A stretch of DNA of 64,000 bases, taken from the NCBI GenBank assembly GCA_000091205.1, contig AP006499.2; one strand, given 5' to 3'. Positions 26,862-55,269 of the stretch are shown here, piece by piece (within the stretch, counting starts at the first letter, position 1; each line of letters begins with the position of its first letter). This DNA comes from Cyanidioschyzon merolae. Lineage: Eukaryota. A model generated the notes under the pieces. It had not been told where the DNA came from. It did no database searches and was given only the letters and a program-made list of their open reading frames with translations. The translations under genes were made by a program, and so were the position numbers.

Positions 26862-29120
26862 GCTCTACCAAAGCCGCAGCCTCCACCAATAACGTACAGA
26901 ATGAAAACGTAGTCCCAGAAACGTTCGAGCGCCTCTGGAACCCCGACTTGTCCACAAGGCGCTGCTCGTGCTCGTGGCGTGCACCCCAGTGGTGCAGCGT
27001 CCGGGCACCACGCAGGCAACGCTACGTGTCCATGCACGCATCGATCGCACGTATCGATCGATTGATCGATCGATGCGCAGCGGCGGCTAGAGGCGCTCAG
27101 CGGCCGCCGCTGCCGCCTGTGCATCCGGTCCGGTGCCGGGGTGAGCACGACGCGCCTGCTCGAGCGCGAAGCGGCAGCGGCTCTTCGCATGCAGTGCCTG
27201 TTCGTTGTAGCGAGGTTTGTTCTGGGTCGGCGTTGGGTCATTCGACGAAATGCTCTCCGACGCACGGGCGCTGGTCGTTGGCGATACATGAATACGAGCT
27301 GGATGGAGAAAGGAATAGCGGCATCGGGCTGAGCGCTGGGAAGCGGCGCGTCGATGCGTGCGTGCGCTGCTGCGCTCTTTTCCCTGATCTGCGCGGGCGA
27401 TGTGTGTCTCTGGCGTTTCCGCATCGATGCAGCAGGGATCCGAATAGTGATCTGAGCGTCGCTTTCTCGGTTATCCTATGACTGCGAAAAAGTGTCGAGC
27501 GCGGAATTTGCGGTCGACTGCAGCATCGACGGAGCGGATACGACGCCCGCTCCCTGGCGACGTCGATTTGGGGCGCTGGCAACCGCGGTGGCCAGCGGGG
27601 CTGTTCACACCCAGCGGTATGCGAGCGCTGAGGTGTCGCGCAGAACGGTTGACCGTCTCCATGGCGACGCTACTGAGACACCATGCGCAATAGCCGGTGT
27701 GACATGAAGTGCCGGATGCGATCACGCGGCTTTGCTGGACGATTTCGGATGCTTCTCGTAATCGAGCGGCATGCTTTCCGAATCACTGAGAAAGCGCGCT
27801 TCCGGGGCTTCGAACACGCATCGCGCTCCGCTGATGCATCTGGAGAACCCGGCACTGTGGTCAGCTCGAGGTCGGAAAATGTGCTGCTCGGCTTCGCCGG
27901 CTGGGAAACGGAATCGCATCGACACGAAGTGTGAAGAAGACGCTGTCTGCGTTCTCTCGTTGCAAGACAGCTGAGCGTTGTGTTCAGCGGTGCCCTGGTG
28001 CCCAGCAGCGCAACCGCGTCCATCTATGCGACGTTTCACCAATGACAGCCACGTGCATGAGCACTCGCACCTGACACATCGTTAACGTTCTGAAAACAGC
28101 ACCGATGCGACCGCCCCCGTCTGCTTCTGGCCAAGGAGCGCTCCCGACGTACAGTTAAGGAGGTCGCGAACGGTGTGTGCGGCACGCGCCGGTTGCGTCA
28201 CACCGGTACGTTCCGAGCGAGCGGTTCCCCCACACGCAGCCGCAGAACGCTAAACCATCCTCTGGACCCCAAAACGCTGGTGCAAAGAGCCGCCCCCAGC
28301 CAAGTACCCTGTCTATGTGGAAGGCATTTCGCACTGGTGCATGCGCCTCGCCCACCTGTGCATCGCGTGGGCGCGCGGCGAGCATTGCGGCGAGCGCAAA
28401 TGCAGGATACCGGGAGATAATTGCAACATGGGCGACGCCCAGACGCAGCTTAACTGCCCCTAGTCCCAGAATACAATGCGTTGCGGACGATTTGCGCAGC
28501 TCACGTAGCAGTACCTGCCACTGCAGAGTCGAACGGGTGACGAGCCTGGCAGACTGCTCCGGCTCGCGGGACCTTTCGCGTGGAAGGAAAACTTTCTAGA
28601 ATACGAAAAGCTTTTCCCCTTTCAAAGTATATCACAGAAGGGGAAAGCAATACATATACATGCCGGTGAATCCAGAGTCTATGTGCGTTAATCTAAATAG
28701 CGCGCGCTAGATACGCGCATCACGAGATCTGGCTGGCACGAGATACGATGCGCATGTCGCCGTTGAAGAGAAAAGCGATTCCGATCAGAAGCGTGTTCTA
28801 CCGGAACAAGTTGGATTTCCGTTGGAGTTTTACAAAAGAGCAGTTTTTTCATTTCATTTGGTCTTCAACCCTCAAACAAGTCTAGTAAAGTGTTTTTTCG
28901 CAGTATATGACAGAAGCGTTCGAAGAGCGTTGTTTTTCAAAAAAACTAAAAAATGAAAGCTATGAAAAAGCAAGTCGACGATCCTGGAGGCTCAGTGTGG
29001 CTGGCTGCCAGAAAAAAAAAACAATAAACATTACCGAGTCCAGAAGAAAAGGAAGAGAAAAAGAACCGAAAGGGGGAGGCTCTACGTCGAAGGCCGCAAG
29101 AAAGACGACAGTACGACGAG

Positions 29121-29879
29121 ATGGTGGTGAAAACCTTTCTTCTTGGACATACCAAGGATCCCTGCAGGGAAAAGTTGCGAGACGCTGTCGAAAAACGTGT
29201 CGACTCTTACTTCAGGAATATTGTGAAGGCGTCGTCAGGACTGATGCATTTGGCGAGGGAGATGTATCGCGACGTGACGCACATGGAAACGGTCAAGATT
29301 CCGGACAAGTTCTTCGACAAGACCTTTATTCGACACCTCATGCTTGGTACAGAGGAAGCGCGGAGGGAAAATGAGCGGGTGCACGTCCTCCACGGAAAAC
29401 ACTCCTTTTACAGCTTTAATGGTACTCGATACAAGGGTGACCGGGATATGTACGACTATGGGGCGATGAAGTACCTCACGAACCTGAAGAACCATCTGAT
29501 CGTGAACCTCGAACGTTTCATGATACGCGCCGTAGTTGCACTCTACCCGGACCTGTCTCGCCAAGGAATATGGGCGATTATCAATGGCATCACGAAAGAT
29601 CGCAGGCGTGAAGACGAGGTCGAATTTGTCGAGAAGAAGGAGTCAAACGAGAGCACGAATGAGGATTCTGTAATCCGTGCGGCTATGAAAGAGCATCGTG
29701 CGGTACTGGGGTTGGCGAATTCAGCAGAAAAGATATCAGCGTTGAAAAAAGATGAGGGAAGATCCTATCGCCTCATTCTGGGATATTTTGTGTTCCTGGA
29801 CCGAGAACTGGGACGCGAGGCAGAGATGAAACTGGGTGAGGAAAAAATGAAGCGTGGGAGAGACGGAAGGCTTTCCTAA
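29121..29879 (+). CDS. Fanzor/TnpB-like protein, N-terminal segment (copy A)
   Basis: 252-aa ORF (ATG confirmed), 96 % identical to copy-B ORF 53486-54244. It lies upstream of and co-oriented with the RuvC segments. Confidence 0.45.
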   Translation: MVVKTFLLGHTKDPCREKLRDAVEKRVDSYFRNIVKASSGLMHLAREMYRDVTHMETVKIPDKFFDKTFIRHLMLGTEEARRENERVHVLHGKHSFYSFNGTRYKGDRDMYDYGAMKYLTNLKNHLIVNLERFMIRAVVALYPDLSRQGIWAIINGITKDRRREDEVEFVEKKESNESTNEDSVIRAAMKEHRAVLGLANSAEKISALKKDEGRSYRLILGYFVFLDRELGREAEMKLGEEKMKRGRDGRLS

Positions 29880-30091
29880 TGGGGAAGCGCTTCAACGGCG
29901 TTCCAATGTGCAACATCAGTTCACATTTTGTGACTATCGACTCCAGAATCCTTTACGGCATCATGTAGGAGATCAGTCCGGAGTTCAGTGTCAGCAGGGA
30001 GGAGTTCTCCGCTGAGAAGCGGGAGACGCACTGGAAGAACATCTTCAATTTCAAACTTCTCAAAGTCAGCAAACAAAAGGTATTCACTGGA

Positions 30092-30658
30092 ATGATCGAA
30101 ACCGATGGAGTAGCCACGTGTGTACACTATCGGCGCTTGAAGGCAGATCGTCCAGTTCTGTGTTCAATATTGTCCGTAACGAAGCATGAAGATGAGAAGG
30201 AGGCGTATCCTGCGACGCAGAAAGTGCAGAATAACGACTTTGTCGTTGGCGCGGACCCCGGAACCACAAATATCGCAACCATCGCAGCACCCAAGCGTGC
30301 GGAAGATGGTACTGACGGCAACCTACGTCGGAAAGACGTGCGTCTTTTGAGGCTCTCGAGAGCAAGATACTATCGAGAATCGGGAATCATGAATGCAAGG
30401 AAGAAAATTGAGGCATGGAATGCAGGAATGAAAGAGCACCTGGAAGCCTTGAGTGAGATGACGAGCCGCGGAGCGGACTTTGAAGCTTTTCGGAAATTCA
30501 TGGAAGTTCGTGTTGCTCATTGGGATGCGCTGTGGGAAGAGTATACAAATCCCCGGTGCGCTCGTCTGCGAATGAATCTGTATTGTGGGAAGCGGCGCGC
30601 GTTCGCGAATTTTTTAATGAGTGCCTTGAAGGAGAATGAAAGTCAGGGCTCGTGGTAG
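30092..30658 (+). CDS. Fanzor/TnpB-like protein, RuvC-I segment (copy A)
   Basis: ...[19 protein letters not shown]... matches the TnpB RuvC-I catalytic Asp motif (cf. IGIDLGxxxxA). 188 aa, 96 % identical to copy-B ORF 52707-53273. Confidence 0.6.
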
Positions 30659-31033
30659 CGTACGGAGCAGGGCGCCGGAGGATACAAAAAGGGTGTACAC
30701 CAGCTCCAACGGCAAGAACGTACATGGAGTGTGCACGGCGTTTTGTTACAATACCTGTAGATGAGTTTCGAACATCGTATACACACCATGAGCTGGGTTG
30801 TACACTTCAGAGAGTGGAGATGGAAAAGTGCCACCGGAGCCCTGAAGATATAAAAAAGTATGGACGGCTGACGGAAGAGCAAATGGAAAGGACGTCGAAA
30901 GTTCGTGGACTCCTTGCATTAGTAAGTACAACCAATGATGGAAAGAAGCGTATGGAGTTTGTGAATCGTGACTTTGATGCCGCTATCAATATCAGGAAAT
31001 GTGCGGTGATGGAGCATAGACCTCCAGAGTGGA
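30640..31033 (+). CDS. Fanzor/TnpB-like protein, zinc-finger-like plus RuvC-III segment (copy A), in -1 frame relative to the preceding segment
   Basis: ...VTIPVDEFRTSYTHHELGC...CHRS...MEFVNRDFDAAINIRKCAVME matches the TnpB C-terminal pattern (V..V.E.YTS.xC ... DRDxNAAxNI). The frame opens at 30640 and overlaps the end of the RuvC-I ORF by ~16 nt. The homologous copy-B ORF stops ~13 codons after NAAINI; copy A lacks that stop and reads through to 31395, which is artefactual. Confidence 0.55.
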
Positions 31034-31241
31034 CAAGAGTGAATTTTGTTGGACAACCTCTCAAAGTCGAACTATATGAGAAAAAGTTGGAAGCAGTATT
31101 CGGTAGACTGTTCAAAAAAACTGGGAGGCATCTGCACGTCAGTTGGCGACGTCTCGTCCAAGGCGCGGTTGCCGCCACTACTGTACACGCCCGACGTCGT
31201 TCGACTTTCGAGCGGCGTTTGGCCGGTGTCACCTCTAATCC

Positions 31242-34200
31242 ATGTCAGGAGTGGAACTCCCAGAAGCAGAGACGAGGTCAGTTCTTTCCGATGCGATTCA
31301 AGTGGCGGTTCGTGTTCGTCCTATTCTTCCGAAAGAAGCAGAGACTAGGGGTGCGGCTGAGACCTGGCGCGCTGTACCTCACGCAGGTCAAGTGATCCGC
31401 GTTGGCCGGCTTCCCACGGGTGCCGGAGGCACGACGACCTGCCCGACTGTCTTCTCGTATGATTTCGTGTTCGGTAAGGAGTCCACCAACGTAGAAGTCT
31501 ACGAAAAGGTGGCGAGGCCTCTGGTTGAAAGCGCTCTAGTTGGTTACAATGGCACCGTCTTTGCCTATGGGCAGACGTCTTCCGGGAAAACGCACACCAT
31601 GTGGGGCAGCGAGGCGGATCCCGGTGTCATGCGTCGGGCTGTACGTGACCTCTTCGAGCTTGCGCGCCGAACGCCTCAGCGAGAGTTCCTCATTCGGGTG
31701 TCTTACCTGGAGATCTACAACGAGACTATCAGAGATCTGCTGCATTCGAACCCAGCCGTGACCAATGTCCGGGTTCTTGAGGATAGCGATGGTCGCATCT
31801 GCACCGATGCGCGAGAGGAAATCGTTGTCACTGCTGAGCAAGTCTGTGAGTTGCTCAAGAATGGCGAGGCGAAGCGTATGACCGGAGCAACGGACATGAA
31901 TGAGCGAAGTTCTCGCTCGCACACGATCCTGACACTAGTGATTGAGAGCAGGGAGCGCGCTGCGGAAGACTCAACCTCTGGGGATGCCGAAGACTCGTCA
32001 TCCGCGAGCGATTCCGCTGTGCGAACCGCAACGCTCACACTCGTCGACCTGGCCGGATCAGAGCGCCAGAAGGACGCCAAGTCCGAAGGTTTACGTTTGA
32101 AGGAGGGTGGCTACATCAACAAATCCTTGTTGACATTGGGCACTGTCATTCACAAGCTCTCGGAGGGAGGCAGTGCCCATGTACCTTATCGCGATTCGAA
32201 ACTCACGCGAATGCTGCAGAGCTCCCTCGGTGGCAACTCTCGAACCGCGGTTATCTGCGCAATTACGCCGGCTGCAGCGCACGCTGAGGAGACGCTGTCG
32301 ACCCTCAAATTCGCAACACGAGCCAAGAGTGTGCAAAACCGTGCCCAGCAGAACGAGGTGCTCGATGATCGAGCCCTGTTGAAACGTTACCAACAGGAGA
32401 TCGCCAGTCTGCGTGCACAGCTAGCGAAACTGCAACAGGGAGATCTAAGCAAACAAGGATGCCCAAACGACTTTGTTCGTGCTCTTGAGCAGAACGCTGC
32501 AGAAGCGGAACGCGAGCGTGAGCGTATCCGTTCTCAGCTAGAGGAAGCGGAGAACAGGCGTCGCCTCTACGAGGAGAAACTGGAGCGCTTGACGCGTTTG
32601 ATATTGAACTCGCCAGCTCCTGCGCCGAAGGTGCGGTCGCGGGTCTCCGTGTCGACGGCGTCCTTGTCGAGTCCTCACTCGGACACGAACGAAAACAAGG
32701 ACGTGGCTTCGCCCGGCGCGTTTGCTTACGAGCCTCGAACACCGCCAGCTGCTGAACCACAGCTTGATCAGCGCTTGACGAGAACGTTTCGAACGCTGCG
32801 ACGGCGGACGCTTGGTGGTAGCGTCGATGGCATTGGGAGCGATGCCCAAGGCTTACTTAACTCGCCCGAGAATCATATCGTGGAGCAGGTTCGAACACTT
32901 CAGCGACGAGTTGAGGCACTAGATGTGGCCCGATGGCGCGAACAGTCAGCCTCATTGAAGGCAGTCTCCTACGAACGTGAGCGTGCTGCGCAGCTGCAAC
33001 AACGTCTGCGTTCGCTCGAGTCGCAGATGCTTCGCCACACCTGCGCCGAAGTTGCCAACGAAGCGCTGCACAAAGCTGCGCTCGCAGCTGTCGATGTGCG
33101 GCTTGCTCAGATCCAGCAGTTGATGCAAAGCGAGCGGAATCGAATGCAACAGCTGCATTGTGAACTTGAACACGTTCGACAAGTCTGCGCAACCAAGCAA
33201 TCCCGACTCGAGATACTCGAACGAGAACTCGGTGAAGCGCGCAGAGAAATCGACGAACTACGCCAGCGTGAAAGAGCTGGATTTACTCAAACGCAAGCGA
33301 AGACTTTTGATCATCTACGCAATCGCGTTGCCGATCTCGAAGCGAAACTTCGTTCGCAACTCGCACTACGGCAACAAGTGGAGGCCTCGCGAGGCGGAGT
33401 CGAACGTGAACTGCGCAAATTGGAGCGCCAGAATCGAGCACTGGAAAAGGAGCTCGCCAAGCTCCGCGAACAGCGCGAACGAATCGAGCAGGCGAAGCTC
33501 ACGGTAGCGCAAGCGGAACAACTTCGCAATGCGTCAGAACAAGCGCAACGCCAAGTGCAAGCTGAGCGGGATGCGCTGCAGCGCCAGTTGAACGAACTCG
33601 AAAACGCCCACACACGCCTTCTCGCTGAGCGTGATACCTTGCTGGAGTACCGGGAGCGGCACCAGCAGGCCCTCGAGCAGCTGGAATGCGCCCAGCAGCG
33701 GATCGCGGATCTCGAAGCGCGATCTGTGCGCTCCGCTGACTGGGAAGCGCGCTGCGAATCGCTCTCCGGGCAACTCGAGGATGCCAGGCAGCGTATTGCT
33801 GCTTTGGAATCGCAGATCGAAACCAATGCCCAGGAATTGGCTTCATTACTGGACCAGGCAACAGATGCTCATCTGCAGCTAGAGGCGGTGCGATCCCAGG
33901 CTCGCGCTAGTGAGCGTTTGCAGGAACAGGTGACGGCGCAGGTGCGTGCAGAGCTGAACGCCCTGGCGGCCAGTCATGAAAAAGAGAGCGCCGAGTGGAA
34001 ACGCATGCGACTGGACACCGAGACGGAACGAGATGCGCTTCGTTCCCAGCTCGCTGACCATAAGCGTTCGCTCGAGGAGCTGCGTCTTGAATGCGCTAAG
34101 CTCGAGTCACGGGCAGCGAAGCTTCTCCAGGAAACCGCGAAGCATATCGAAGAGAAGCATCGTCTCCTCGAGACTGTGCATGCGCGCGATCGACGCATTA

Positions 34201-34769
34201 CCGACCTTGAAAGTCGCCTCCGCGAGTGTGTCGAAGGAGGTGGTCGCTATGCGCGTCTCTGTCGACTTGTTGAAAAGCGCGAAGCAGAGCTGACTCGCGC
34301 CCGCGAAACTCTGCGGCTGCTGGAGGAGCGTCTTGTCGCCGAAGGGCGCTCTGCAGAGTTCTGTGACCTCCATGCGAGTGCGCAGCATGAGGCCGAGCGC
34401 TTGAGCTTTGAGAAGGAGCTTGCTCGCTCCAAAGAAAAAAGCGACAAGATGCAGCAAGAACGACAACAGCTGTTACTCGAGAACAGCAAATTGCGTGACG
34501 TAGTCAAGCACAAGGACCGACAGCTTCTGAGTCTGCAGGCTAAGCTGAAGCACGCCGAGGCAACCATCTTGTCGCAGCGCGGCAATGCGAGTCTTCCTGA
34601 ACAGGGCACCGTCTCAGACATTTCCATGGGGGCAGGTGCCGCTCCTGCATGTGTAACTCAAAGTGCTCCTGGCGCTCAAGATTCCAATAACAAGGAGAAT
34701 TTGGGATGCGAACAGGATTCGGAACGTGCTGCTGCTCAGCTGTTCGGATCGCTCGACGACAACAAGTAG
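31242..34769 (+). CDS. Kinesin motor protein with N-terminal motor and ~800-aa coiled-coil tail (kinesin-7/CENP-E-like)
   Basis: GQTSSGKTHTM P-loop, SSRSH switch I and LVDLAGSE switch II. The motor region is similar to CENP-E (FAYGQTxSGKT...), followed by a long heptad-rich tail. The ATG at 31242 is confirmed. Confidence 0.85.
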   Translation: MSGVELPEAETRSVLSDAIQVAVRVRPILPKEAETRGAAETWRAVPHAGQVIRVGRLPTGAGGTTTCPTVFSYDFVFGKESTNVEVYEKVARPLVESALVGYNGTVFAYGQTSSGKTHTMWGSEADPGVMRRAVRDLFELARRTPQREFLIRVSYLEIYNETIRDLLHSNPAVTNVRVLEDSDGRICTDAREEIVVTAEQVCELLKNGEAKRMTGATDMNERSSRSHTILTLVIESRERAAEDSTSGDAEDSSSASDSAVRTATLTLVDLAGSERQKDAKSEGLRLKEGGYINKSLLTLGTVIHKLSEGGSAHVPYRDSKLTRMLQSSLGGNSRTAVICAITPAAAHAEETLSTLKFATRAKSVQNRAQQNEVLDDRALLKRYQQEIASLRAQLAKLQQGDLSKQGCPNDFVRALEQNAAEAERERERIRSQLEEAENRRRLYEEKLERLTRLILNSPAPAPKVRSRVSVSTASLSSPHSDTNENKDVASPGAFAYEPRTPPAAEPQLDQRLTRTFRTLRRRTLGGSVDGIGSDAQGLLNSPENHIVEQVRTLQRRVEALDVARWREQSASLKAVSYERERAAQLQQRLRSLESQMLRHTCAEVANEALHKAALAAVDVRLAQIQQLMQSERNRMQQLHCELEHVRQVCATKQSRLEILERELGEARREIDELRQRERAGFTQTQAKTFDHLRNRVADLEAKLRSQLALRQQVEASRGGVERELRKLERQNRALEKELAKLREQRERIEQAKLTVAQAEQLRNASEQAQRQVQAERDALQRQLNELENAHTRLLAERDTLLEYRERHQQALEQLECAQQRIADLEARSVRSADWEARCESLSGQLEDARQRIAALESQIETNAQELASLLDQATDAHLQLEAVRSQARASERLQEQVTAQVRAELNALAASHEKESAEWKRMRLDTETERDALRSQLADHKRSLEELRLECAKLESRAAKLLQETAKHIEEKHRLLETVHARDRRITDLESRLRECVEGGGRYARLCRLVEKREAELTRARETLRLLEERLVAEGRSAEFCDLHASAQHEAERLSFEKELARSKEKSDKMQQERQQLLLENSKLRDVVKHKDRQLLSLQAKLKHAEATILSQRGNASLPEQGTVSDISMGAGAAPACVTQSAPGAQDSNNKENLGCEQDSERAAAQLFGSLDDNK

Positions 34770-37700
34770 TCGCACAGGGCGATGCGAATGACGTTATCAG
34801 TTTTGACCTATATTCTCTATTCCATCGCTGAAAGCTATAAGAGATGTGTTCAGCAGAGGCGAGTCTACCTTCGACCTGGTCTCATTGAAAAGGCTGCGCT
34901 AGACGCTGTCACGTCGAATTGCTGGACACCTGCATCGTGTAGACATCGCCCAGCAAACTCATTCCCAGCGCATATAAACATATTTATGTATACGGCGTTC
35001 CGGCTTTGCTGACCTGTTCATCGTTCCACACCAGTGTCGTGCTCCAGCCAAGAATCCCATGCCGCCTGTGATGCCCGCTGATTGCTTCATCGCATTTCTT
35101 CACCCTGTTCGCACAACGCTGACGCCGAGTCGCCAAAGGACACTTCACTTGGACGCTTGCCTGGGCACGTAGCCGCTGGTCGTTCCGGAAGTCTGAGCCA
35201 TCTCCGGACGCTGATCCAAGTTTTGCAGTCTCAATGCGGAAAGTGTCTGCACGCGTGTTTGCTGGTGGCATCAAACCACAGAAAGCCTCGCGCCTGCGAT
35301 GGCCTCAGGATCTACGGTTGGTCAGCTCTTCGGAAAGCTTTTTGTGTGTCCGTCTTTAGTTCACGCTTGTCTTCGCTGCCTGGTTCACCGAGGAACGTTC
35401 TCTTGTTGCGTATGCGTTGAACTGGAGTCTTGGATGGGCTTGGTACAGCATGGATTCCTGCACGCGTTCAATGCTCTAGTCGGATGAGCAGGTGCGCAGC
35501 TTTTTCGCGCTACAGCTCGTATGGCGCCTTGGGCCTCCACCATCAAACGGAGCAAATCGTTGGTCATTGCCTTGTCAAACTCATTGAACTATTCCGCGAA
35601 TGCATGCTTCGTGCCGCCTCACAAGGGGAAGCGCTGCCGACCCCAGCGGGGTCTCTGGTATCCCTGCCAAGGAGCGTCCGCGTGAGCCGTTTGGACGCTC
35701 AGGTACGCAGTGCATGAAGCGTCCAAAGCGTCCTCCTCCACGTCAGCTGAGTACGGTACTCGGAGTGGCGAGGCGCCCGTCGCGACACCGTCGTTGCGCT
35801 CGTGCGTTTACCTCCTGGCGTCTATGATGTCTGACGCTCGTCAACATCGAGCAGCAGAAGACTTGAACAGCTTCATCTGCATGCATATTAGGTATAGGGC
35901 TCCGTCCTGTTGATATACATGCACGATGACGGCAGTGATGTGCTTCAAGCTGGATTCACGCTCACAACAAAGTCTGTTTCTTCTCCTACCTTGAATGGTT
36001 GGGAATTCGTCTCGTTACGCAGCTTGGATCCGGGTTCCACAAAGTACATGCAGATTGGTATGGCGTCGGTCTGCATCGCTCCGGTGAACTTTTTTTCAGC
36101 TGCTCCCTGTCATGGAGACAACGTAGGATGAGCTCGCCCGATGCTCTTCGCGAATCGGTTCGAGGGTTTCACAGCTGGTCGCCCCAGACCAGGTTCTTCT
36201 GCAATGCGTAACGTACGAGGCCGAGTTGCATCCATGTGACCGCCATATTCTACATCCGTTTTTTGACGTCGGGATTCAGACGCACTGGGTGGACGGTCAG
36301 ACTACAGCTCGCCATTTCGATGTATCCGTCAATAGTTCCTGGGGTGCCTGTTTGTCGCCATGTCCGTCGCGAGGACGCCGACGGCGTGAAGCGTGCCTCA
36401 CCGCTCCCTCCTGCGCATGAGCCGAGAAGCAACGCAGCAGTTCAGATCTGGAAAAGGTAGCAGAGAGCGTCTTGTCGAAGAACATCGCTAGTACGGATGC
36501 AAACGACGTGTCTGTTGATCCGAGAGTGTAGAAACCGCGATTTTCCGCAGAGAACACGCTTCGGCCTGGATTAAATCGGAGACAATGGACAGCCGTGGAG
36601 AGCTGCTTACGCCTCGACGGATGTCCACTGATGGAAAGCGCCGTTACCTAGCACCAGGACATGAACCTGTGCAGGACAAGCCATAGAGTGCTTCGACGAT
36701 GCATGGGGTGCTGAACAATCCTGTCCGTCTGGTGCATTGTGGGTGGACATTTTATTCAATTGCCACCAGGGTTGACGTGGTCGTCATTCGCGAATGACGC
36801 TTTTTTACATACATCGGTTTGCCCGTCTTTGAGCCCAATGTAAAAACGCCCACCATTTCTCCTGAATCAAATCTCATCGAGGGAGGCGATCACCCGTCGG
36901 GCCGGTTATACGTATTCGCGTTTCACTAGGAAATCGGTAGCGTGTTGTGAAACGCGCGATGGTCACTTTTAGAAGCGTGCTCGCTCTTCTTTGTCCATCC
37001 GTATCTCTCGAACGCCGTTCGTAGCACGGGTACGGAATCTTCACACCCTGCGGCTCCCTTGATCATGTTTCGTTGAGAACATATCGGTGAAATGGAATGC
37101 TTGGGAGACAGTTGTGTGAACAGAGTTTGATATGCTTTGTTCTGGGTGCATCTGGTTCAGGATAAGGACGAGGTGGCGTCCTGACCTGTGCATTTGCTGA
37201 CCGTACAGTAACTGACGCGCACGTGCAATGCCGTATTCAGCGCGTCACCTGTGACGGTATCGAGTCTCCTCATGACCTTTTTCTAACCTTCGGAGCACAT
37301 TCCATTTGCTGAATACCTACGAGAACAGAAACATATCAAAAACAGGTGCGCCTACTCAGGTACTCCGTAATGCATTGCCCTGAACTAACCCAAGCATGTC
37401 CAATGCAGAACATGCGACAGCGACAAGTACCATGGCCTCTGCTGCGAGCAAGCAGGTGCGCGAGATTCGATCCAGTGTTTACCGCCCGTCTAGGCGAGGT
37501 CCCGGTTGCAGTGGTACGCTTGTCGACTCTGTGGATCGCTCTGCGAAGCGAGGAGTGTGGCGAGCCACCAAGCGTCTCGCGCTTGCTGGTCGTCCAGGTT
37601 GCGCACGGTGCTGCTCACGACCGGTCGACCCGCGCTGAGGTCGGTTGGTACGCGCGACGACGACGACGACGACGACGTGCGGTGGCGAAGCATTGCCTTG

Positions 37701-38004
37701 CGTCCGGGACACCTGTGGCGTCCCCGATACGCTCGAGTGCCTGATCAAACCGGTGACGTCGGTATGCTGTTGGTGGCGGCGTGGAAAGCGCGTCTGTTGG
37801 ACTGACGAGTGTCTCGCGTTCGTTAGAATAGAGGTGTCGCTGCAGAGCGGTTGCGGACGGGGTTTCTTAAACGCCGCGTTCCGTCTCGTTCCGAGGCTGT
37901 CGCCACCGCTACCTGATGCACGAAAGACGCGCGTTTGGCAAAAACAGACGTTCAGAGTCTCTCGTGCTAGCCGCTACACCATGGGTCCTTTATAATTGTG
38001 TGAA

Positions 38005-38050
38005 TCCATGCACGATTTAAGGACCCATCGGGAATCGAACCCGAGTCTAG
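38005..38050 (-). other. tRNA-like fragment: Pol III B-box/T-arm (GGTTCGATTCC) followed by an 8-bp hairpin, but no complete cloverleaf
   Basis: The minus strand reads ...ctcGGGTTCGATTCCCgatgggtcc..., then 32 nt, then ggacccat. No complementary 5' acceptor arm or anticodon arm was found upstream. Confidence 0.2.
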
Positions 38051-39099
38051 AGATCTCTCGCTGCACAGGAAAAACACGTCTGGAATTGATATATAAAGCG
38101 TTGTACATCAGGGCAACGGCGAGGCAAATACGCGCTGTGGTGCTGGGCGCTGCTGCTCGAACGCATACCAGGTGTCGTGTCCGTTTAGTACAGTTTCGCG
38201 CCTGCCCCCGCGAGCGATTGCCCTGCCGCTCGCAATGTAACGTTTCGAGTCCGTAGCTGGGCACAGCGCGCACAGGGAGCTCTGCTGGTGCTGTCGGCTC
38301 ATGCAGCACCAGCGAAAGCAACGACAGTAGCACCGAGGACATGACTGAACGAGGGCGTGGTCGAGGGCGCATCCGCGTTCCCAATGCGGGATCCGTACGA
38401 CGTTCACTTGTACCTGTGTGCGCTGACGGCTGCTGTGGTACCGCTGGCGGGTACACCACTGAATAAGCTCTGGTGTGCAGCCTCGGTATTACGGGGGTTT
38501 AAGAAATGTGCTATTTTTGGTGCAAGCTTTAGACACAGAAGGCACTCGAAAATAAACGGGCTGGGCGAACAATCCGTGCTTTCGGTGTCCTGCGTCGTTC
38601 AGGCTGTGTCTGATCCACCGTGAGGTGCCCTAGACCAGAACGCACGCTTCGCTGCTCTCTCTACACCTGCTTGGTCTTTCGTCGAGCGTCGACCAGACCC
38701 AGCGCTGCGAGTGCGACTTGCATTCGACACGGTATCGCGAGCGAGTGCAGGACACAGATGCGGCACGCCGTACCAGGCGATGGCGGCTGGCAGGGCTCCA
38801 GCACCTCAAGGTGCACTCTCTCTAACTACGCGCCACCTGTTGAAGCGAACCCCGGACGATAATACGCGTAGGCAGCGTGGTCGTCACTGTGGATTCGTCG
38901 CAACCAGGTAGCGTTGGCGATGTATGCCCAGGACGCACGTCAGGTCCCAATGTTGCTCGTCATTCCGTTTAGAGAGCCTATACGCCTGCGCCCTAGTCGG
39001 CGGACTTGACGAGCGCCCCAAAACCCTAGCTGTGTGACGGCGATATCCAGTTAGGTGCCTCTGCGACGCGGGACAGAGGCAATCTCCGAATAAAGCTGC

Positions 39100-43976: not shown

Positions 43977-44448
43977 ACAGAGCCGAGCGGCGTGCCATCA
44001 TCCAGCTACGATCCTGCTACCGCCACTCCGTCTGACTACGAGACATTTTGGGTTTCTGGTCATACTTCTGAACAGTAGACAATGTTGAGCCACTGGCCGT
44101 TAGAGCCGCAAGGCAGGAACAGTCTTTCAAAGGCCGCGATTTTTTCATGTTGCAGCGTCGGCCTGTCTTCTGGAAATCAAACGGCCAAGTGTTACGTCTG
44201 CCTGCGGCTCGCTCGGCGAACGTCTCCGCCGCGCATGATGCCCATGCGGTAGCGCCGTGGGCACGGCACGACCGGGGACTGGACGGGGTTAAGGTGCTGG
44301 CACACAAGTCGCAGCTGCAGTGTCGCTGAACACGTTCCCAGCGGCTGACCGGGTGTGCCTAGATCATGGTCACACGCCATCACACACACCGACCGGACAT
44401 GGTATTGCTGTGTTTTCATTATCGGCAGCGGCCATGTTGCTGCGTACT

Positions 44449-45726
44449 TTAGGATCGATGAGGTGAGCGTTCGGCGCCAGTATCGTGGCGCGAATATGGC
44501 GGACGGGCATCCCGTACTGGTGTTGACCAATGCGGGGACGCTCCTTCTTCATCGGTTTCACTCGCGAAGAGATCCTGGAGCATTGCGTTCAGACGTAGCC
44601 ATCGGCGTTGCAACTCGTCAATGACTCGTTCCTGGCGAGCGCATGCCGTATGCAATTTGCAGAGCTCTCGCTCGTAGAGTTGTTCCCTCTGAGCGTTTTC
44701 AGCCTCGGCTGTGTGCCGGACTTGCTTCAGTTGTGCCTCGAGTGACTCCCGCTCTTGTTGTGCACGTTGTTTTTCCTGGAGAGCGTTCTGCAGCAATATT
44801 TGTGTGTGTTCGTGCTCCTGTCGTAGCGCTCCGTACTGCCTGCGTGTCTCTTCAAGCTCATCACGCACTGTTCGCCAGTGCTCGCTCTTGGTCTCGAGGG
44901 CGCCTTCGAGGCGGGCGATTTGCAGACGTAACTGTCGATTTTCATTCTGGGATCTTTGGCACTGGAGCTGCAGCCTGCTGAGCTCCTCCTCAGCACTGCA
45001 TTTGGACTCGAGCAGGTTCGCAATCTGGTTCTCGAGTTCTAGCAATGAGGTGTCCGTCAGGACGGTAGCCGGGGGCGGGTGCCCAAACGGCTCCCTCGAG
45101 GCATATGGAGCCTCCTGACGCTCGCTCTGTAAAGCGTTGTGCTCCTTGTTCGACGTACACTGAGGAAAGTTGGCGGTCACTCGCTGATGATAGCTGGTCG
45201 AACCGGCCGACCGCGGCGTCGGCTCCGGGGACGATGCTTGGCCGCTTGGCGTCGACATTGCGCACTCTTGTCGCTGCTGCTGCTGCGTCGCCGGCGGTGG
45301 CGCTTGCACTGGACCGAACAGCATCTTCCGAACGGGGGGCGTCTTCGCAGTGCCATTCGCCTGATCCTTGGCGATGCGTTGTCGCCACGAAGCCGCGATC
45401 TGGTCGCACTGCGTCTCTCCTAGGGGGTTACGAAACGCCCGCTGGGCGCGCCGGTTGGTCGCTATGGAGCTCCCCGGACCAGACGCTGCCCCTGCGTTGC
45501 CGTCAGAGCGATATCGCCGTCTCAAAATGGGAGGTTGCTTCGACGAATCGACAGCTGTGCCTGTCGGTAGCAGTTTCCTTTCCAAAAGAATTTGCTCCAA
45601 CTGCTGGAGCGCGTCCCCTGGAGGGCACGCCTCTACTCTTCCCCACGCGCTGCCCAGAGACGCACTTCCAGTTATAGTCTGCGTTGGCGCCTCATTTTCC
45701 TTGTTAGGCGGGGCACTGGCCCGCAT
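44449..45726 (-). CDS. Coiled-coil protein (Gln/Glu/Arg/Leu heptad-rich), function unknown
   Basis: 425-aa ORF with the ATG at 45724-45726 confirmed. It contains a long predicted coiled-coil (ELSRLQLQCQRSQNENRQLRLQIARLEGALE...). Confidence 0.4.
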   Translation of the reverse strand: MRASAPPNKENEAPTQTITGSASLGSAWGRVEACPPGDALQQLEQILLERKLLPTGTAVDSSKQPPILRRRYRSDGNAGAASGPGSSIATNRRAQRAFRNPLGETQCDQIAASWRQRIAKDQANGTAKTPPVRKMLFGPVQAPPPATQQQQRQECAMSTPSGQASSPEPTPRSAGSTSYHQRVTANFPQCTSNKEHNALQSERQEAPYASREPFGHPPPATVLTDTSLLELENQIANLLESKCSAEEELSRLQLQCQRSQNENRQLRLQIARLEGALETKSEHWRTVRDELEETRRQYGALRQEHEHTQILLQNALQEKQRAQQERESLEAQLKQVRHTAEAENAQREQLYERELCKLHTACARQERVIDELQRRWLRLNAMLQDLFASETDEEGASPHWSTPVRDARPPYSRHDTGAERSPHRS

Positions 45727-46217
45727 GGCTGCTCGAGTGCTACCGAGCTCTGCGTCGGTCTCGAGGCGTCGGCGAGCACCCCAGCTATCAGAGCGCTCGG
45801 CCGCGCACCGTGGTAGGTCTCTCGTCTAGGAGAGGCGCGCTTCTCCCGGACAAGAGCACTGACGTACGCAGCAACGACTTGCAGCCGATCGATCGAATTA
45901 GCCAGCGCGTCAGGTAGCTGACCAGTCAGCCTTCAGCGACAAGACGCTCCCGACAGACGATCCTGACTGCGCTTTTTACGCAAACGCTTGAACGGATACG
46001 GAAGCGCTCGATTGGTGCCCGGCATCCGCTTCTCCGCGAGTGCGGCGTGCGCGCCGGCGATTCGAAACGCTCCCGAATGAGCACACGTACACGCATCCGC
46101 GCATCCGTGCACGCATGCGAACGGAATGCGTAACGCACCGCGCACACGTCGCCGCTGAACGTCACGCGTGATGGATCGCATTGCACGCCGCCGTTTGTAC
46201 ACGCGTCGATTTGCGCG

Positions 46218-46223
46218 CCAGCA

Positions 46224-46260
<37 letters not shown>
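46218..46260. repeat. (GCA)n microsatellite
   Basis: gcagcagcagcagcagcagcagcagcagcaa. Confidence 0.9.
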
Positions 46261-48954: not shown

Positions 48955-49154
48955 CTCTACTTTGTTTCGAATACTGGTAAAACAATGTCTTTTTTGAGTT
49001 TGCGCTGAATTACCGTGGTAGATACGGCTCTGCGAACGCACCTCTACTGCGCAGTACGGGTACACAGCATCCGTAAGCAGCGCTTGCGGCAACGCATGGA
49101 CGCCAGCGTCGATCCCGAGACTAGGCGCGCGCGCCCGGGCACGCATCCACACAC

Positions 49155-49215
49155 ATGACAGACGGCTGCTGCTGCTGCTGCTGCTGTTGCTGCTGCAGGA
49201 GCGGCGGCGGCTGCG
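49155..49215. repeat. (CTG)n/(GCG)n microsatellite
   Basis: ctgctgctgctgctgctgttgctgctgcaggagcggcggcggctgcggcggcggcgg. Confidence 0.9.
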
Positions 49216-50368
49216 GCGGCGGCGGATCGATGCTCAGTGCGCGCCCGCACCAGATCGCGGATCGCATGCGATTTGCCGCGGCGTGGCGTACGCTCCCAGT
49301 CATGTGTGCGATCAGCGAGTACTGGCAAGGGCTCCAAGCTGAATGCCCGTGTGCTGCCTGAGGCCACGAACGAGACTCTAGAAGCTCCAGGGACGCTTCT
49401 ATGTACGGTAACGTGTCGAACATTAATATCGACGAGGAGTGGAAGCTGGGTCTAACGATTGTCAAGGTGCCGTGTGTGTATTGACCACCGCACAGAGAGA
49501 CGAGGCGACGTCTTCGCTGTAGCATGGCTGGCGTCGCGTCAGTCGTACCAGCAGCGGGGCAAGCGTGCTGTTCTAGTCGAACGCACAGCGCCGGCTCCGA
49601 ATGCCATTCAGTTCGCGAGCTGATAGAGCGTTTCATGGTCGTTGTAGGGCGTCCATAGAGGAGACTGAATAACGGGTGCAGCACGCTGCTGCCGCGAGTC
49701 GTGCGAGGAGCGCCTCTGGGGTATGCGCACCGACCGGTGCGGAAACGGCGCGGCGACGCTGATTTGCAAAGTGCAAACGCAGGGCGCGCGAGTGCTCACT
49801 TGCGCTGCAGATGCCGGAACACGTGCGCTGGCCCCGAGACCGATACTCGTGGCTCCTGGAACTGTATGCGGCGCTTTGGACTCGGTTTGAGCTTTCTCGA
49901 ACCTGCTGTGGATCCGGTTATACCAACTTGCTCGGTACTAGAAGGTTCGGACGACTTTGCGCGAGGATACGACGAACAACATGGCGCAAGACAACGATGG
50001 CAACAGCGCGCTTATCGCATGCCAAGCGGGTGCCCGCGGTTGCGAAGCTGTTCGCGACTGACACGCATCTGCGTCGACCTCGTGGGAGCCATGGTGCACG
50101 AACATGTGCTCTGCATTGAGAAGCGTCTGTGCGAAAATGGAAGCAAGGTTCAGAGAGCTGGGGTTGACGCCAGGGCGGCCCTCCAATGCATGAGCAGGAG
50201 CACGAACAAAACCGGGGAAATACAAACACTGGGCACTTTAACACGAGAGCGACTTTCGTTCGCCATGTCATAGATAGGAGGAATTTTCCACGACGCGACA
50301 AGTTTTCAAGATCAAATAAGTGATGCAGTTCGCCAAAGCATTCAGAAACGATGTTGACGCCAGATCTT

Positions 50369-51862: not shown

Positions 51863-52338
51863 CAAACCTGACAGAGCCCACCCTCTATACGTACAACAGA
51901 TAAATCTAGTCCGTTCACGGACGAGAAGACCGTTCCGGCTACGCTTTCCGTTTCGCTGCAGACGTCTCCGTGCGCGCTTTTCAGAGTTGTCACAATCGCC
52001 AGCTCACTGCGTCGATAAATACCACGAACACAAACCACAGTGTGACCAGGAGCCAGTCAGAAACCAGACAAGCGCTGTGGAGTCCAAGAAAAACGAAGTT
52101 CCCACAACGCTCGTCGAGGCCTCACCTAGAACACCCCTGAAGACAAACGTCTTTGAAAAGGAGAACGCTGTCGCCGGCGGTGTACAGCAGTGGCGGCAAA
52201 CGGGTCCTAGACAAATCGTCCCCAACTGATGGGCAGACACCTCGCCGTCTTTCTCGACCGGTCACCCACTACTGGTTTCAACTTTTTCTCATATAGTTCC
52301 ACTTTGGAAGATTGTCCAATTAAGTTTTCTCTTGTCAG

Positions 52339-52722
52339 TTATGGAAGTCTTCTTTCCATCACCGCACATCTGCTTATATTGATAGCGGCATTAAAGTCAC
52401 GGTTCACGAATTCCATACGTTTCTTCCCGTTGACTGTACTTACTAATGCAAGGGGTCCACGAACTTTCGACATCCTTTCCATTTGCTCTTCCGTCAGCGG
52501 TCCATACTTTTTTATACCTTCAGGGCTCCGGTGGCACTTTTCCATCTCCACTCTCTGCAGTGTACAACCCAGCTCATGGTGTGTATACGATGTTCGAAAC
52601 TCATCTACAGGTATTGTAACAAAACGCCGTGCACACTCCATGTACGTTCTTGCCGTTGGAGCTGGTGTACACCCTTTTTGTATCCTCCGGCGCCCTGCTC
52701 CGTACGCTACCACGAGCCCTGA
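52339..52722 (-). CDS. Fanzor/TnpB-like zinc-finger-like/RuvC-III segment (copy B), with native-looking stop 13 codons after NAAINI
   Basis: ...EFVNRDFNAAINISRCAVMERRLP*. It shows the same -1 frame offset relative to the RuvC-I segment as in copy A. Confidence 0.55.
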   Translation of the reverse strand, partial: SGLVVAYGAGRRRIQKGCTPAPTARTYMECARRFVTIPVDEFRTSYTHHELGCTLQRVEMEKCHRSPEGIKKYGPLTEEQMERMSKVRGPLALVSTVNGKKRMEFVNRDFNAAINISRCAVMERRLP

Positions 52723-53273
52723 CTTTCATTCTCCTTCAAGGCACTCATTAAAAAATTCGCGAACGCGCGCCGCTTCCCACAATACAGATTCATTCGCAGA
52801 CGAGCGCACCGGGGATTTGTATACTCTTCCCACAGCGCATCCCAATGAGCAACACGAACTTCCATGAATTTCCGAAAAGCTTCCAAGTCCGCTCCGCGGC
52901 TCGTCACCTCACTCAAAGCTTCCAGGTGATCCTTCATTCCTGCATTCCATGCCTCAATTTTCTTCCTTGCATTCATGATTCCCGATTCTCGATAGTATCT
53001 TGCTCTCGAGAGCCTCAAAAGACGCATGTCTTTCCGACGTAAGTTGCCGTCAGTACCATCTTCCGCACGCTTGGGTGCTGCGATGGTTGCGATATTTGTG
53101 TTTCCGGGGTCCGCGCCAACGACAAAGTCGTTATTCTGCACTTTCTGCGTCGCAGGATACGCCTCCTTCTCATCTTCATGCTTCGTTACGGACAATATTG
53201 AAGACGGCACTGGACGATCTGCCTTCAAGCGCCGATAGTGTACACACGTGGCTACTCCATCGGTTTCGATCAT
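52707..53273 (-). CDS. Fanzor/TnpB-like RuvC-I segment (copy B)
   Basis: 188 aa with 7 substitutions relative to copy A. The Ruv[20 protein letters not shown] motif is retained. Confidence 0.6.
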
Positions 53274-53485
53274 TCCAGTGAATACCTTTTGTTTGCTGAC
53301 TTTGAGAAGTTTGAAATTGAAGATGTTCTTCCAGTGCGTCTCCCGCTTATCAGCGGAGAACTCCTCCCTGCTGACACTGAACTCCGGACTGATCTCCTAC
53401 ATGATGCCGTAAAGGATTCTGGAGTCGATAGTCACAAAATGTGACCTGATGTTGCACATTGGAACGCCGTTGAAGCGCTTCCCCA

Positions 53486-54244
53486 TTAGGAAAGCCTTCC
53501 GTCTCTCCCACGCTTCATTTTTTCCTCACCCAGTTTCATCTCTGCCTCGCGTCCCAGTTCTCGGTCCAGGAACACAAAATATCGCAGAATGAGGCGATAG
53601 GATCTTCCCTCATCTTTTTTCAACGCTGATATCTTTTCTGCTGAATTCGCCAACCCCAGTGCCGCACGATGCTCTTTCATAGCCGCACGGATTACAGAAT
53701 CCTCATTCGTGCTCTCATTTGACTCCTTCTTCTCGACAAATTCGACCTCATCTTCACGCTTGCGATCTTTCGTGATGCCATTGATAATCGCCCATATTCC
53801 TTTACGAGACAGGTCCGGGTAGAGTGCAACTACGGCGCGTATCATGAAACGTTCGAGGTTCACGATCAGATGGTTCTTCAGGTTCGTGAGGTACTTCATC
53901 GCCCCATAGTCGTACATATCCCGGTCACCCTTGTATCGAGTACCATTAAAGCTGTAAAAGGAGTGTTTTTCGTGGAGGACGTGCACCCGCTCATTTTCCC
54001 TCCGCGCTTCCTCTGTACCAAGCATCAGGTATCGAATAAAGGTCTTGTCGAAGAACTTGTCCGGAATCTTGACCGTTTCCATTTGCGTCACGTCGCGATA
54101 CGTCTCCCTCGCCAAATGCATCAGTCCTGACGACGCCTTCACAATATTCCTGAAGTAAGAGTCGACACGTTTTTCGACAGCGTCTCGCAACTTTTCCCTG
54201 CAGGGATCCTTGATATGTCCAAGAAGAAAGGCTTTCACCACCAT
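53486..54244 (-). CDS. Fanzor/TnpB-like N-terminal segment (copy B)
   Basis: 252 aa with 10 substitutions relative to copy A. Confidence 0.45.
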   Translation of the reverse strand: MVVKAFLLGHIKDPCREKLRDAVEKRVDSYFRNIVKASSGLMHLARETYRDVTQMETVKIPDKFFDKTFIRYLMLGTEEARRENERVHVLHEKHSFYSFNGTRYKGDRDMYDYGAMKYLTNLKNHLIVNLERFMIRAVVALYPDLSRKGIWAIINGITKDRKREDEVEFVEKKESNESTNEDSVIRAAMKEHRAALGLANSAEKISALKKDEGRSYRLILRYFVFLDRELGREAEMKLGEEKMKRGRDGRLS

Positions 54245-55269
54245 CTCGTCGTACTGTCGTCTTTCTTGCGGCCTTCGACGTAGAGCCTCCCCCTTTCGGT
54301 TCTTTTTCTCTTCCTTTTCTTCTGGACTCGGTAATGTTTATTGTTTTTTTTTCTGGCAGCCAGCCACACTGAGCCTCCAGGATCGTCGACTTGCTTTTTC
54401 ATAGCCTTCATTTTTTAGTTTTTTTGAAAAAGAACGCTCTTTGAACGCTTCTGTCATATACTGCGAAAAAACACTTTACTAGACTTGTTTGAGGTTTGAG
54501 GCACAAATGAAATGAAAAACTGCTTTTTTGTGAAACTCCAACGGAAATCCAACTTGTTCCGGTAGTACACGCTTCTGATCAGAATCGCTTTTCTCTTCAA
54601 CGGCGACATGCGCGTCTTGTCAGTTGACTGCCCGATCTCCCTGATGCGCTCACCGAGCGGGATTCTTTTTTCATTGACAAGACGTTTACTTAGGCCAGCG
54701 TTCTCCGACTGTGCGCTTTTTCTTTTCTTTCTTTTTTTATTTGGTTTTCTGCGCGCGTTGAAGTATCCATCAAACACCCTACTCCCAAGTCACATTACCT
54801 AAACTTCTTCTCGGATTTTCTGGTCGTTTCATGCGTTCTATCACACACCTAATGCCTGCCCTAGTCATCCGCAATAGCGTCTTTACCTTCGGTACAGTTG
54901 CATCACGGAGACAGAACGGCGTTGCCGTACCACAGAGGGCGTCCGTTCGAACTGGGGTACGGATCATACGTGGATCGCGGCGAACGGGGTTGTGACCGGG
55001 TTCTTTGTGCGTCGCTCGAATGTGCGTTTCCTCCAATGCCCTGTAGCTGCTGGTTCAGAAGCATTCGGTTCTGGTCTTTGAATTCAGCTCCGACTTTGGA
55101 TTACATGAGAGAGCGTCAATTTTCGTGTAGGTCATACCTATTTTCAGCTTTGGTGCGGACGCGTGCACGAACGTCACGCTTTCCAACGACTACATGGAGC
55201 CCCGAGCCGTTGGGAACGATCCCAACACGACGAGCTCCGCCGCTCGAGAATACATCGGAAACGATGGTG

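Follow-up and report, generated by a model that had tools for sequence, protein, structure and literature searches.

Two inverted Fanzor1-type pseudogenes on chromosome 17 of Cyanidioschyzon merolae, probably homogenised by gene conversion

The genome of Cyanidioschyzon merolae is among the smallest and most repeat-poor in eukaryotes. On chromosome 17 of strain 10D, two closely similar repeats lie in opposite orientation with about 21 kb of host genes between them, which raises the question what these repeats are and how they came to be so alike. An earlier note on the window, the whole stretch of 64,000 nucleotides analysed here, had described the repeats as a TnpB/Fanzor-like nuclease element at 28749–31212 and 52145–54613 and had taken their likeness as a sign of recent mobility or duplication. 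The inverted pair is real, and a repeat search combined with MAFFT alignment places the arms of the inverted repeat at 28724–31196 and 52172–54639. The ends of the element, however, were moved outward by comparison with other family members and with the published consensus. Apart from the 5′ module of copy A (see below), the two copies extend from about 28703 to 31231 on the plus strand (copy A) and from about 52132 to 54650 on the minus strand (copy B).

The consensus used is that of CMe-1A, a Fanzor1 element of C. merolae which is present in about 150 copies, about 80% identical to a 3169-bp consensus, and lacks TIRs; its 5′ 635 bp equal TE-N2_CMe, and its description in 2013 did not settle where it ends, which target site it uses or to which TE class it belongs (Bao & Jurka 2013, Mobile DNA 4:12, PMC3627910). 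In BLASTN alignments with this consensus, copy A appears as a 5′-truncated element at 28430–31231 (+) with 84.9% identity over 2778 bp, equivalent to consensus positions 375–3137 plus the outer arm of a 3′ hairpin. Its left boundary at 28430 is common to many other copies, and its right end was placed by the terminal hairpin. Copy B (52132–54650, −) corresponds to consensus positions 671–3169 with 85.6% identity over 2507 bp. The 5′ modules of the two copies display no mutual similarity and are both pieces of TE-N2_CMe. The module of copy A occupies 28430–28702 (+; consensus ~375–650), while a TE-N2_CMe/CMe-1A 5′ fragment at 54778–54950 (+; consensus 84–254) adjoins copy B and is inverted relative to it. 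TIRs and TSDs were sought at the element ends and none were found.

Once its lesions are repaired, the window protein aligns with the published CMe-1 over 578 aa at 79% identity. More than 70 family copies with differing flanks are found in related metagenome contigs, which, together with the approximately 150 copies in the literature, speaks for a multi-copy insertion family and not for a segmental duplication at a single locus. Judged by these alignments, both repeats are copies of the already described CMe-1A family, and the finding is real but ordinary. Organism, family, lack of TIRs and the 5′ part in common with TE-N2_CMe are shared with the published CMe-1A/CMe-1, but the window copies differ from it in being 5′-truncated or rearranged, frameshifted, and mutually homogenised in their cores.

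Fanzor1 descends from TnpB, an RNA-guided RuvC nuclease, and is found in eukaryotes. In Pfam scans, neither the repaired protein nor four homologs reached the threshold of a TnpB or Fanzor family. OrfB_IS605 (PF01385) and PF07282 gave no match at E≤1 for the window protein or its close homologs, and the most distant homolog (P0058) reached 19.4 bits against a PF07282 cutoff of 26.3. The precomputed Pfam label of the family is DUF8286, for which a literature search found nothing, and neither the single protein nor a 5-sequence profile matched any sequence in the PDB. The comparison with the Pfam OrfB_IS605 and Zn-ribbon profiles, which the earlier note had proposed, formally fails, and the assignment is rescued only by a larger family profile and by fold comparison. 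The successful profile comprises 91 family members, anchored by homologs 33–84% identical to the window protein, and matches PpFz1 (9cf0, 8.6e-23), SpuFz1 (8gkh, 1.5e-18) and GtFz1 (9cer, 3.2e-11). In the profile alignment, DPG, DEFRTS and NRD line up with DPGRRD, DEFRTS and NRD of PpFz1, so that the proposed D...E...D residues coincide with the Fanzor1 RuvC motifs; the catalytic E never varies across the 91 sequences, and each of the two D residues is at least 90% conserved. Structural evidence comes from a homolog 41% identical to the window protein (P0052), whose AF2 model (pLDDT 91.5, pTM 0.89) was compared with the PDB using Foldseek. The top seven matches are all Fanzor1 proteins (TM 0.54–0.72), the best being SpuFz1 (E 6e-18, TM 0.63–0.72), and Cas12 and TnpB proteins follow lower in the list. 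Family profile, fold of the homolog and the match to the published CMe-1A/CMe-1 bear out the reading of the repeats as TnpB-derived Fanzor elements.

With the characterised Fanzor1 proteins (SpuFz1 8gkh, 9ceu–9cez; PpFz1 9cf0–3; GtFz1 9cer–t), the family has in common the fold, as seen in the homolog model, and the RuvC-I/II/III motifs, but sequence identity is just 11–16% and the window copies are inactive. The zinc-finger CxxC...CxxC of PpFz1, located between RuvC-II and RuvC-III, aligns to non-cysteines in the C. merolae proteins (THHELGC ... LLALVST). This replacement is a within-family difference and does not exclude them from Fanzor1. Bacterial TnpB (OrfB of IS200/IS605 and IS607; PDB 8h1j) and Cas12f share the ancestral RuvC nuclease fold with weaker structural matches (E 1e-4 to 1e-3). 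In contrast to these, the C. merolae proteins show no Pfam-level match to OrfB_IS605 or Cas12f1-like_TNB, possess a far larger N-terminal helical region, and occur in a eukaryotic host with no TnpA partner. By analogy with characterised Fanzor1, intact family members presumably use an RNA from the 3′ end of the element to guide RuvC cleavage of matching DNA.

Copies A and B are pseudogenes, relics of the Fanzor1 family and not active members. The encoded TnpB-type protein described in the earlier note is recognisable by its motifs DFVVGADPG(T/N)...(D/N)AAINI in both copies, but no single ORF exists: the coding region is broken into three frame segments by two 1-nt deletions and one TAG, which are identical in A and B. 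In copy A, where all of the following positions lie on the plus strand, the first segment (29121–29879, 252 aa) covers the N-terminal helical (REC-like) part of Fanzor1. It contains the first lesion, an A6 run at 29842–29847 in place of the A7 of the consensus and of intact homologs, and this 1-nt deletion and its frameshift recur in copy B (within 53511–53527) and in the orthologs of related strains. The second lesion, an in-frame TAG at 29966–29968 instead of the consensus AAG, is found in both 10D copies (B: within 53391–53408) but not in related strains, whose orthologs of copy A read AAG or AGG at this place. The second segment (30092–30658, 188 aa from ATG) carries the RuvC-I aspartate codon GAC at 30254–30256 (motif GADPG). 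Close to its end, at 30644–30649, CAGGGC replaces the consensus CAGAGGC, a 1-nt deletion causing the second frameshift, which is also present in copy B (within 52707–52723) and in one ortholog (L096). The third segment (30652–31231) extends into the 3′ tail and holds the RuvC-II glutamate codon at 30763–30765 (DEFRTS) and the RuvC-III aspartate codon at 30970–30972 (NRDFDAAINI).

The RuvC catalytic codons are unbroken in both copies, as had been pointed out before, but this is no sign of function: the differences between A and B are spread over the codon positions as 7/12/13, with no third-position excess. That a full-length nuclease is still expressed, through read-through of the stop combined with ribosomal or transcriptional slippage at both deletions (the A6 run and the second one), is hardly credible. 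A −1 slip on GAAAAAAT would give back the exact consensus frame and length, and the catalytic codons are undamaged. However, recoding would have to take place at three separate points, there is no slippery sequence at the second deletion, AAG was changed to TAG in this lineage only, and the differences between the copies appear neutral.

The identity of the pair, given earlier as about 96–97%, is not uniform. Over 2499 bp, BLASTN gives 95.2%, and this value is composed of very unequal parts. A tract at 28749–30930 (+; counterpart in copy B 54613–52430) is 97.9% identical with 46 differences in 2182 bp, while the first ~45 bp are about 64% and the 3′ 260–300 bp 77% identical. The transitions are abrupt. 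At 28749 identity steps from about 64% to 96–100%, and past 30930 it drops to 68–87%, leaving an unconverted 3′ tail in copy A (30931–31231, +) with about 77% identity to the tail of copy B.

Both this mosaic and a comparison with orthologs indicate gene conversion, contrary to the recent mobility or duplication suggested earlier. Most probably, A and B are old, independently inserted and defective CMe-1A copies, whose internal 2.18 kb was homogenised by intrachromosomal gene conversion and not by recent transposition. Gene conversion (concerted evolution) between inverted homologs 21 kb apart would explain the 98% core together with the three shared lesions, and the 21-kb host block would simply be the DNA between two neighbouring insertions; the copies would look young because conversion made their middles alike. 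In related strains, the flanks of the orthologous A loci are 0.7% diverged from 10D, and copy A is closer to copy B than to its own orthologs in these 99%-identical strains. At 28–80 core sites (1.6–3.7%), A and B of 10D agree and the ortholog differs, but these allele-sharing counts are not clean, since the orthologs stem from short-read metagenome contigs that are possibly chimeric across 98%-identical repeats. The ortholog comparison covers site A. Site B is flanked by genes for a 497-aa ORF and lipoyl synthase, and the locus L026/L059 has the outer flank of copy B, but with a different core and a different sequence on the other side, which makes the history of this site less certain.

Recent transposition, in which a defective CMe-1A, moved in trans, would have landed again close by and left two young copies, would likewise produce a 98% identical core with the same disabling lesions, and the family is multi-copy with some members intact. 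It should, however, produce similarity from end to end, yet the 5′ modules show no relationship and the 3′ tail, terminal hairpin included, reaches no more than 77% identity. Moreover, both copies are about 15% off the consensus, as is typical of old copies, and among the copies sampled the best non-orthologous relative of copy A is at most 85.4% identical to it, which makes this course of events unlikely. Elsewhere in the 10D genome there may be further defective copies with ~98% identity that form a young subfamily. Inverted segmental duplication of a segment bearing one element would fit an inverted pair within 26 kb of one chromosome, but it is highly improbable in view of identity steps that fall within the element and of a similarity that ends inside the element on both sides, where the flanks are unrelated. 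In this respect the earlier preference for insertion over segmental duplication was well founded. As to the gene conversion favoured here, ectopic conversion is a familiar means by which dispersed or inverted repeats, such as palindrome arms and duplicated genes, are homogenised. The present locus resembles such cases in its sharply bounded core, in paralogs that are closer than orthologs, and in a lineage-specific mutation found in both copies. It differs in that the substrates are two dead transposon copies, and no selective benefit is therefore implied.

Inverted copies that bracket a block of genes have the geometry of a composite transposon, in which the elements would serve as termini of a 26-kb unit that carries host genes along. 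Apart from the geometry, the observations oppose this reading, which deserves next to no credence: A and B, both of them pseudogenes, have ends that are degraded or truncated, the outer flanks (TTGCAACAT ahead of the first element and ACTGGGGTA behind the last) contain no target-site duplication, and the block is made up of single-copy host DNA that related strains hold in synteny. Fanzor/TnpB is not known to be a transposase. The bracketed block (31242–51865) is not part of the element and encodes a CENP-E-like kinesin, an NDH2 with EF-hand, an FMN-dependent dehydrogenase and others (Pfam). Six proteins encoded in the window match C. merolae 10D chromosome proteins exactly and confirm the organism, and the gene order of the block is the same in related strains (L013/L014). 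These are ordinary single-copy housekeeping genes; no mobility of the 21-kb block is apparent, and nothing suggests that it and the pair work together as a functional unit. Where a genome contains about 150 copies, two neighbouring ones are unsurprising.

At the 3′ terminus of copy A, a long hairpin (GACGTCGTTCGA-CTT-TCGAGCGGCGTT plus an outer stem) is situated at 31183–31231 (+) and ends 10 bp ahead of the kinesin ATG at 31242. The corresponding region of copy B (52132–52185, −) has a second hairpin variant in degraded form (RNAfold −15.7 kcal/mol, z −1.1). In 25 of 28 copies the sense strand of the hairpin is more stable than the antisense strand (p 1.7e-5). Since the stems of the variants lie in different registers, one structure string is unfit for all, and pairs were counted on variant 1 only, in which 91.7% of cells are paired and four pairs are changed on both sides. 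RNAalifold on the last ~340 nt of the 28 copies returned a weak consensus (covariation term −0.64) that missed the terminal hairpin, and an Rfam scan of copy A gave a sub-threshold chance match only. Helitron-like ends were considered for the hairpin and rejected because no consistent CTRR terminus follows it. The published CMe-1A consensus ends within the hairpin and the outer arm lies ~15–25 bp beyond, so that the true 3′ end is likely located there. The conserved, strand-specific hairpin, which sits right at the 3′ boundary of CMe-1A copies, is one small new point and a candidate for an omega-RNA stem or a transposition signal. Tentatively, it could form the terminal stem of an omega-RNA whose guide derives from the adjacent host DNA, or serve as a cis signal for strand-specific mobilisation.

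The locus calls for caution where high identity between transposon copies is taken as recent mobility, as the identity observed here probably reflects gene conversion of dead copies and the pair would provide a compact case of concerted evolution. In addition, the Pfam TnpB models overlook this Fanzor1 lineage (DUF8286), which only family profiles or fold comparison detect. If the proposed role of the hairpin is true, the true 3′ terminus of CMe-1A and the place of its guide would be fixed by it, and copy A would bring an RNA of this kind to 10 bp from where the reading frame of a CENP-E-like kinesin starts. C. merolae is a genetically tractable thermo-acidophile, and the hairpin may aid the definition of the omega-RNA and the ends of its Fanzor elements.

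The window carries an inverted repeat whose arms were located by a repeat search at 28724–31196 (+) and 52172–54639 (−), here termed copy A and copy B, and which are 95.2% identical over 2499 bp (BLASTN). The coordinates in the earlier note agree with a MAFFT alignment and a BLASTN comparison of the two arms, and the motifs quoted there (GADPG, DEFRTSYTHHELGC and NRDF(D/N)AAINI) are found in both. Since arms, coordinates and motifs were all recovered, the observation is real. The repeat as such therefore stands, but the coding sequence is not unbroken, being distributed over three frames, and identity is not even but strongly non-uniform along the element. Between A and B it amounts to about 64% over the first 45 bp, reaches 96–100% over the 2182 bp from 28749 to 30930, where 46 differences separate the copies (98% overall), and drops to 68–87% in the last ~300 bp (77% overall). 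By codon position the differences are distributed 7/12/13, a spread that would be expected under neutral decay.

Both copies match CMe-1A, a Fanzor1 family of C. merolae with about 150 copies, each about 80% identical to a 3169-bp consensus and some of them still intact (Bao & Jurka 2013, PMC3627910). In that description no terminal inverted repeats were found, target-site duplications could not be determined and the TE class is given as unknown; the 5′ 635 bp are common to the repeat TE-N2_CMe (PMC3627910). A BLASTN search of the window with the consensus, taken from supplementary file 2 of the same paper, gave three matches: copy A, covering consensus positions 375–3137 at 28430–31188 on the plus strand (84.9%), copy B, covering 671–3169 at 54637–52148 on the minus strand (85.6%), and an inverted fragment, covering 84–254 at 54778–54950. 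With a density of ~150 copies in the genome, the presence of two within 26 kb is unremarkable. In a BLASTN comparison with 80 related loci from metagenomes, many other copies extend leftwards to window position 28430 when aligned to A, and to 54950 when aligned to B. The 5′ modules of A and B bear no relation to one another. Each comes from the TE-N2_CMe portion of the consensus, one in inverted orientation, and similarity between A and B begins almost exactly where this portion ends. At the opposite end, the copies have a long hairpin in common. The published consensus stops before its outer arm, which places the 3′ ends at ~31231 in copy A and ~52132 in copy B.

A protein of ~660 amino acids can be obtained by joining the three frame segments, which requires that one base be added back to the A6 run at 29842–29847, a TAG at 29966–29968 be read through, and one further base be added back near 30644–30649. 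The CMe-1A consensus reads A7, AAG and CAGAGGC where the window copies read A6, TAG and CAGGGC, confirming the three lesions. Over 578 aa, the repaired protein and the published protein CMe-1 share 79% identity. Judged from the run of accession numbers, neither repeat has an annotated protein in strain 10D.

A Pfam scan of the repaired protein gave no match at E≤1, and neither the single protein nor a 5-sequence profile matched any sequence in the PDB; the profile match to TnpB/Fanzor proposed as a test in the earlier note thus fails as written. The assignment itself is well supported by profile matches, motif alignment and fold comparison. Close relatives of the repaired protein number 58, drawn from metagenomes and a single Logan assembly; they include intact proteins of 592–752 aa, and DUF8286 is their sole precomputed Pfam label. 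An exhaustive profile search yielded 2885 cluster representatives (50% clustering) at E≤0.001. A profile built from 91 family proteins matches the Fanzor1 proteins of Parasitella parasitica (PpFz1, E 8.6e-23), Spizellomyces punctatus (SpuFz1, E 1.5e-18) and Guillardia theta (GtFz1, E 3.2e-11), and the DPG, DEFRTS and NRD motifs of the family align with the corresponding motifs of the solved Fanzor1 proteins. Moreover, the intact homolog P0052, which is 41% identical to the window protein, was modelled with AlphaFold2 (pLDDT 91.5, pTM 0.89) and the model compared with the PDB by Foldseek: the best seven matches are all Fanzor1 (E 6e-18 to 3e-15, TM 0.54–0.72), followed by Cas12 variants, Fanzor2 and TnpB at E 1e-5 to 1e-3. 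The zinc-finger cysteines of PpFz1, in contrast, have no counterparts in the C. merolae proteins. With its 2885 representatives, the Fanzor1 lineage containing CMe-1 is large; it lacks the canonical zinc-finger cysteines in the 91-protein alignment and bears only the name DUF8286 in Pfam. Several intact homologs (P0001, P0006 and P0008; region L001:11225–11375) possess a ~23-aa unit, …TKHEE.KEA.PATQKVQDNDLVVDA…, in 1–4 additional tandem copies, duplicating the stretch immediately upstream of the RuvC-I motif with the motif start included.

Recent transposition or duplication is expected to leave uniform identity along an element. The earlier note had read the similarity of the two arms as recent mobility or duplication, a reading that gives way to probable gene conversion in view of the uneven identity, the distance from the consensus and the comparison with orthologs. 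Copies A and B are each ~15% diverged from the CMe-1A consensus; only the internal 2.18 kb are nearly identical, whereas the tails are far less similar and the 5′ modules differ. Among the sampled metagenome loci, to which this comparison is confined, the best non-orthologous copy is at most 85.4% identical to A. Orthologs of copy A were identified beside the same mitochondrial-carrier and Pol-beta genes on contigs of closely related strains (L096–L103), the single-copy flank of which differs from 10D at 0.7% of sites. Within the core, 28–80 sites (1.6–3.7%) are the same in A and B of 10D but different in the ortholog, although metagenome contigs break at 30091–30889, near the tract boundary, and may be chimeric across the 98%-identical repeats. 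Where the two copies disagree, the orthologs side with A about as often as with B. Both copies in 10D have the TAG, the orthologs reading AAG or AGG, so that it arose in the 10D lineage and is now found in both paralogs. Paralogs closer to each other than to orthologs, sharp tract edges and a lineage-specific mutation in both copies are what ectopic gene conversion classically leaves behind, and their combination makes such conversion between A and B the likely origin of the near-identical cores.

Situated right at the 3′ boundary, the hairpin is found in all copies that reach the 3′ end and occurs in two forms, GACGTCGTTCGA-CTT-TCGAACGGCGTT (variant 1) and AACGTTTTTC-TTTT-GAAAGACGTT (variant 2), the stems of which differ in sequence. 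In many copies it is lengthened by an outer stem, CACCG..GGCG / CGTT..TGGTG. Across 28 distinct copies, the sense strand folds at −20.9 and the antisense strand at −14.7 kcal/mol, the sense strand being more stable in 25 (Wilcoxon p 1.7e-5), in keeping with the numerous G-U pairs of the stems; relative to shuffled sequences, the mean z is −2.4. In variant 1, 91.7% of cells are paired, compared with 34–51% in slid controls, both sides have changed in 4 of 12 pairs, and none of 500 shuffles attains the covariation score of 0.24. No convincing consensus fold was obtained for the wider 3′ region, and Rfam yielded no match. In TnpB and Fanzor systems, the guide of the omega-RNA lies in the flank beyond the last stem. 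By analogy, the hairpin could form the last stem of a Fanzor omega-RNA, with the guide in the flank; a role as a strand-specific DNA signal for mobilisation would fit it equally well.

In copy A the hairpin ends at 31231, 10 bp before the annotated ATG of a CENP-E-like kinesin (31242), so that promoter and 5′ UTR of the kinesin gene must lie inside the dead Fanzor element. The same arrangement is found in related strains (L013–L015).

The surrounding long intron-less ORFs encode, according to Pfam, the kinesin, a poly(A) polymerase, a Pol-beta-like polymerase, an NDH2 with EF-hands, an FMN-dependent dehydrogenase and lipoyl synthase; six ORF products match annotated C. merolae 10D proteins exactly (locus tags CMQ...). 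The host genes within the 21-kb block are ordinary. For a composite element consisting of the pair and the enclosed block there is no evidence: gene order is the same in related strains, with contigs L013 and L014 covering 30707–44759 at 99.4%, and no target-site duplication was detected at the outer flanks of the pair. One related-strain contig (L003:12761–17469) is 99% identical to the window as far as 21751, after which a SecA gene takes the place of the Pol-beta-like gene; the cause is either a break in synteny or chimerism of the assembly. Three further contigs (L026:591–5115, L059 and L024) are 96–100% identical to the window over 56678–54500, a region that takes in a portion of lipoyl synthase, the TE-N2 fragment and the beginning of element B. 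Beyond this stretch, their core is 80–90% identical to B, with unrelated DNA on both outer sides; they are either chimeric or derive from a related genome in which the locus is rearranged or paralogous.

Further repeats in the window include a tandem array of ~132-bp period at 13042–13976, inside the ORF 12975–14015, to which related-strain contigs align at different offsets, indicating that copy number varies between strains. A ~40-bp tandem repeat at 22209–22519 lies upstream of the Pol-beta-like gene and is the point at which several metagenome contigs stop. A perfect 109-bp tandem duplication (55268–55485) immediately precedes the lipoyl synthase ORF and is present also in L026 and L059, and long CAG/CTG trinucleotide runs occur at 45268–46260 and 49170–49218, in or near coding regions of the block.

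In conclusion, the repeats represent two pseudogenised copies of the published Fanzor1 element, the cores of which were probably homogenised by gene conversion, and are as such already explained; the modestly new elements are solely this conversion history and the terminal hairpin.
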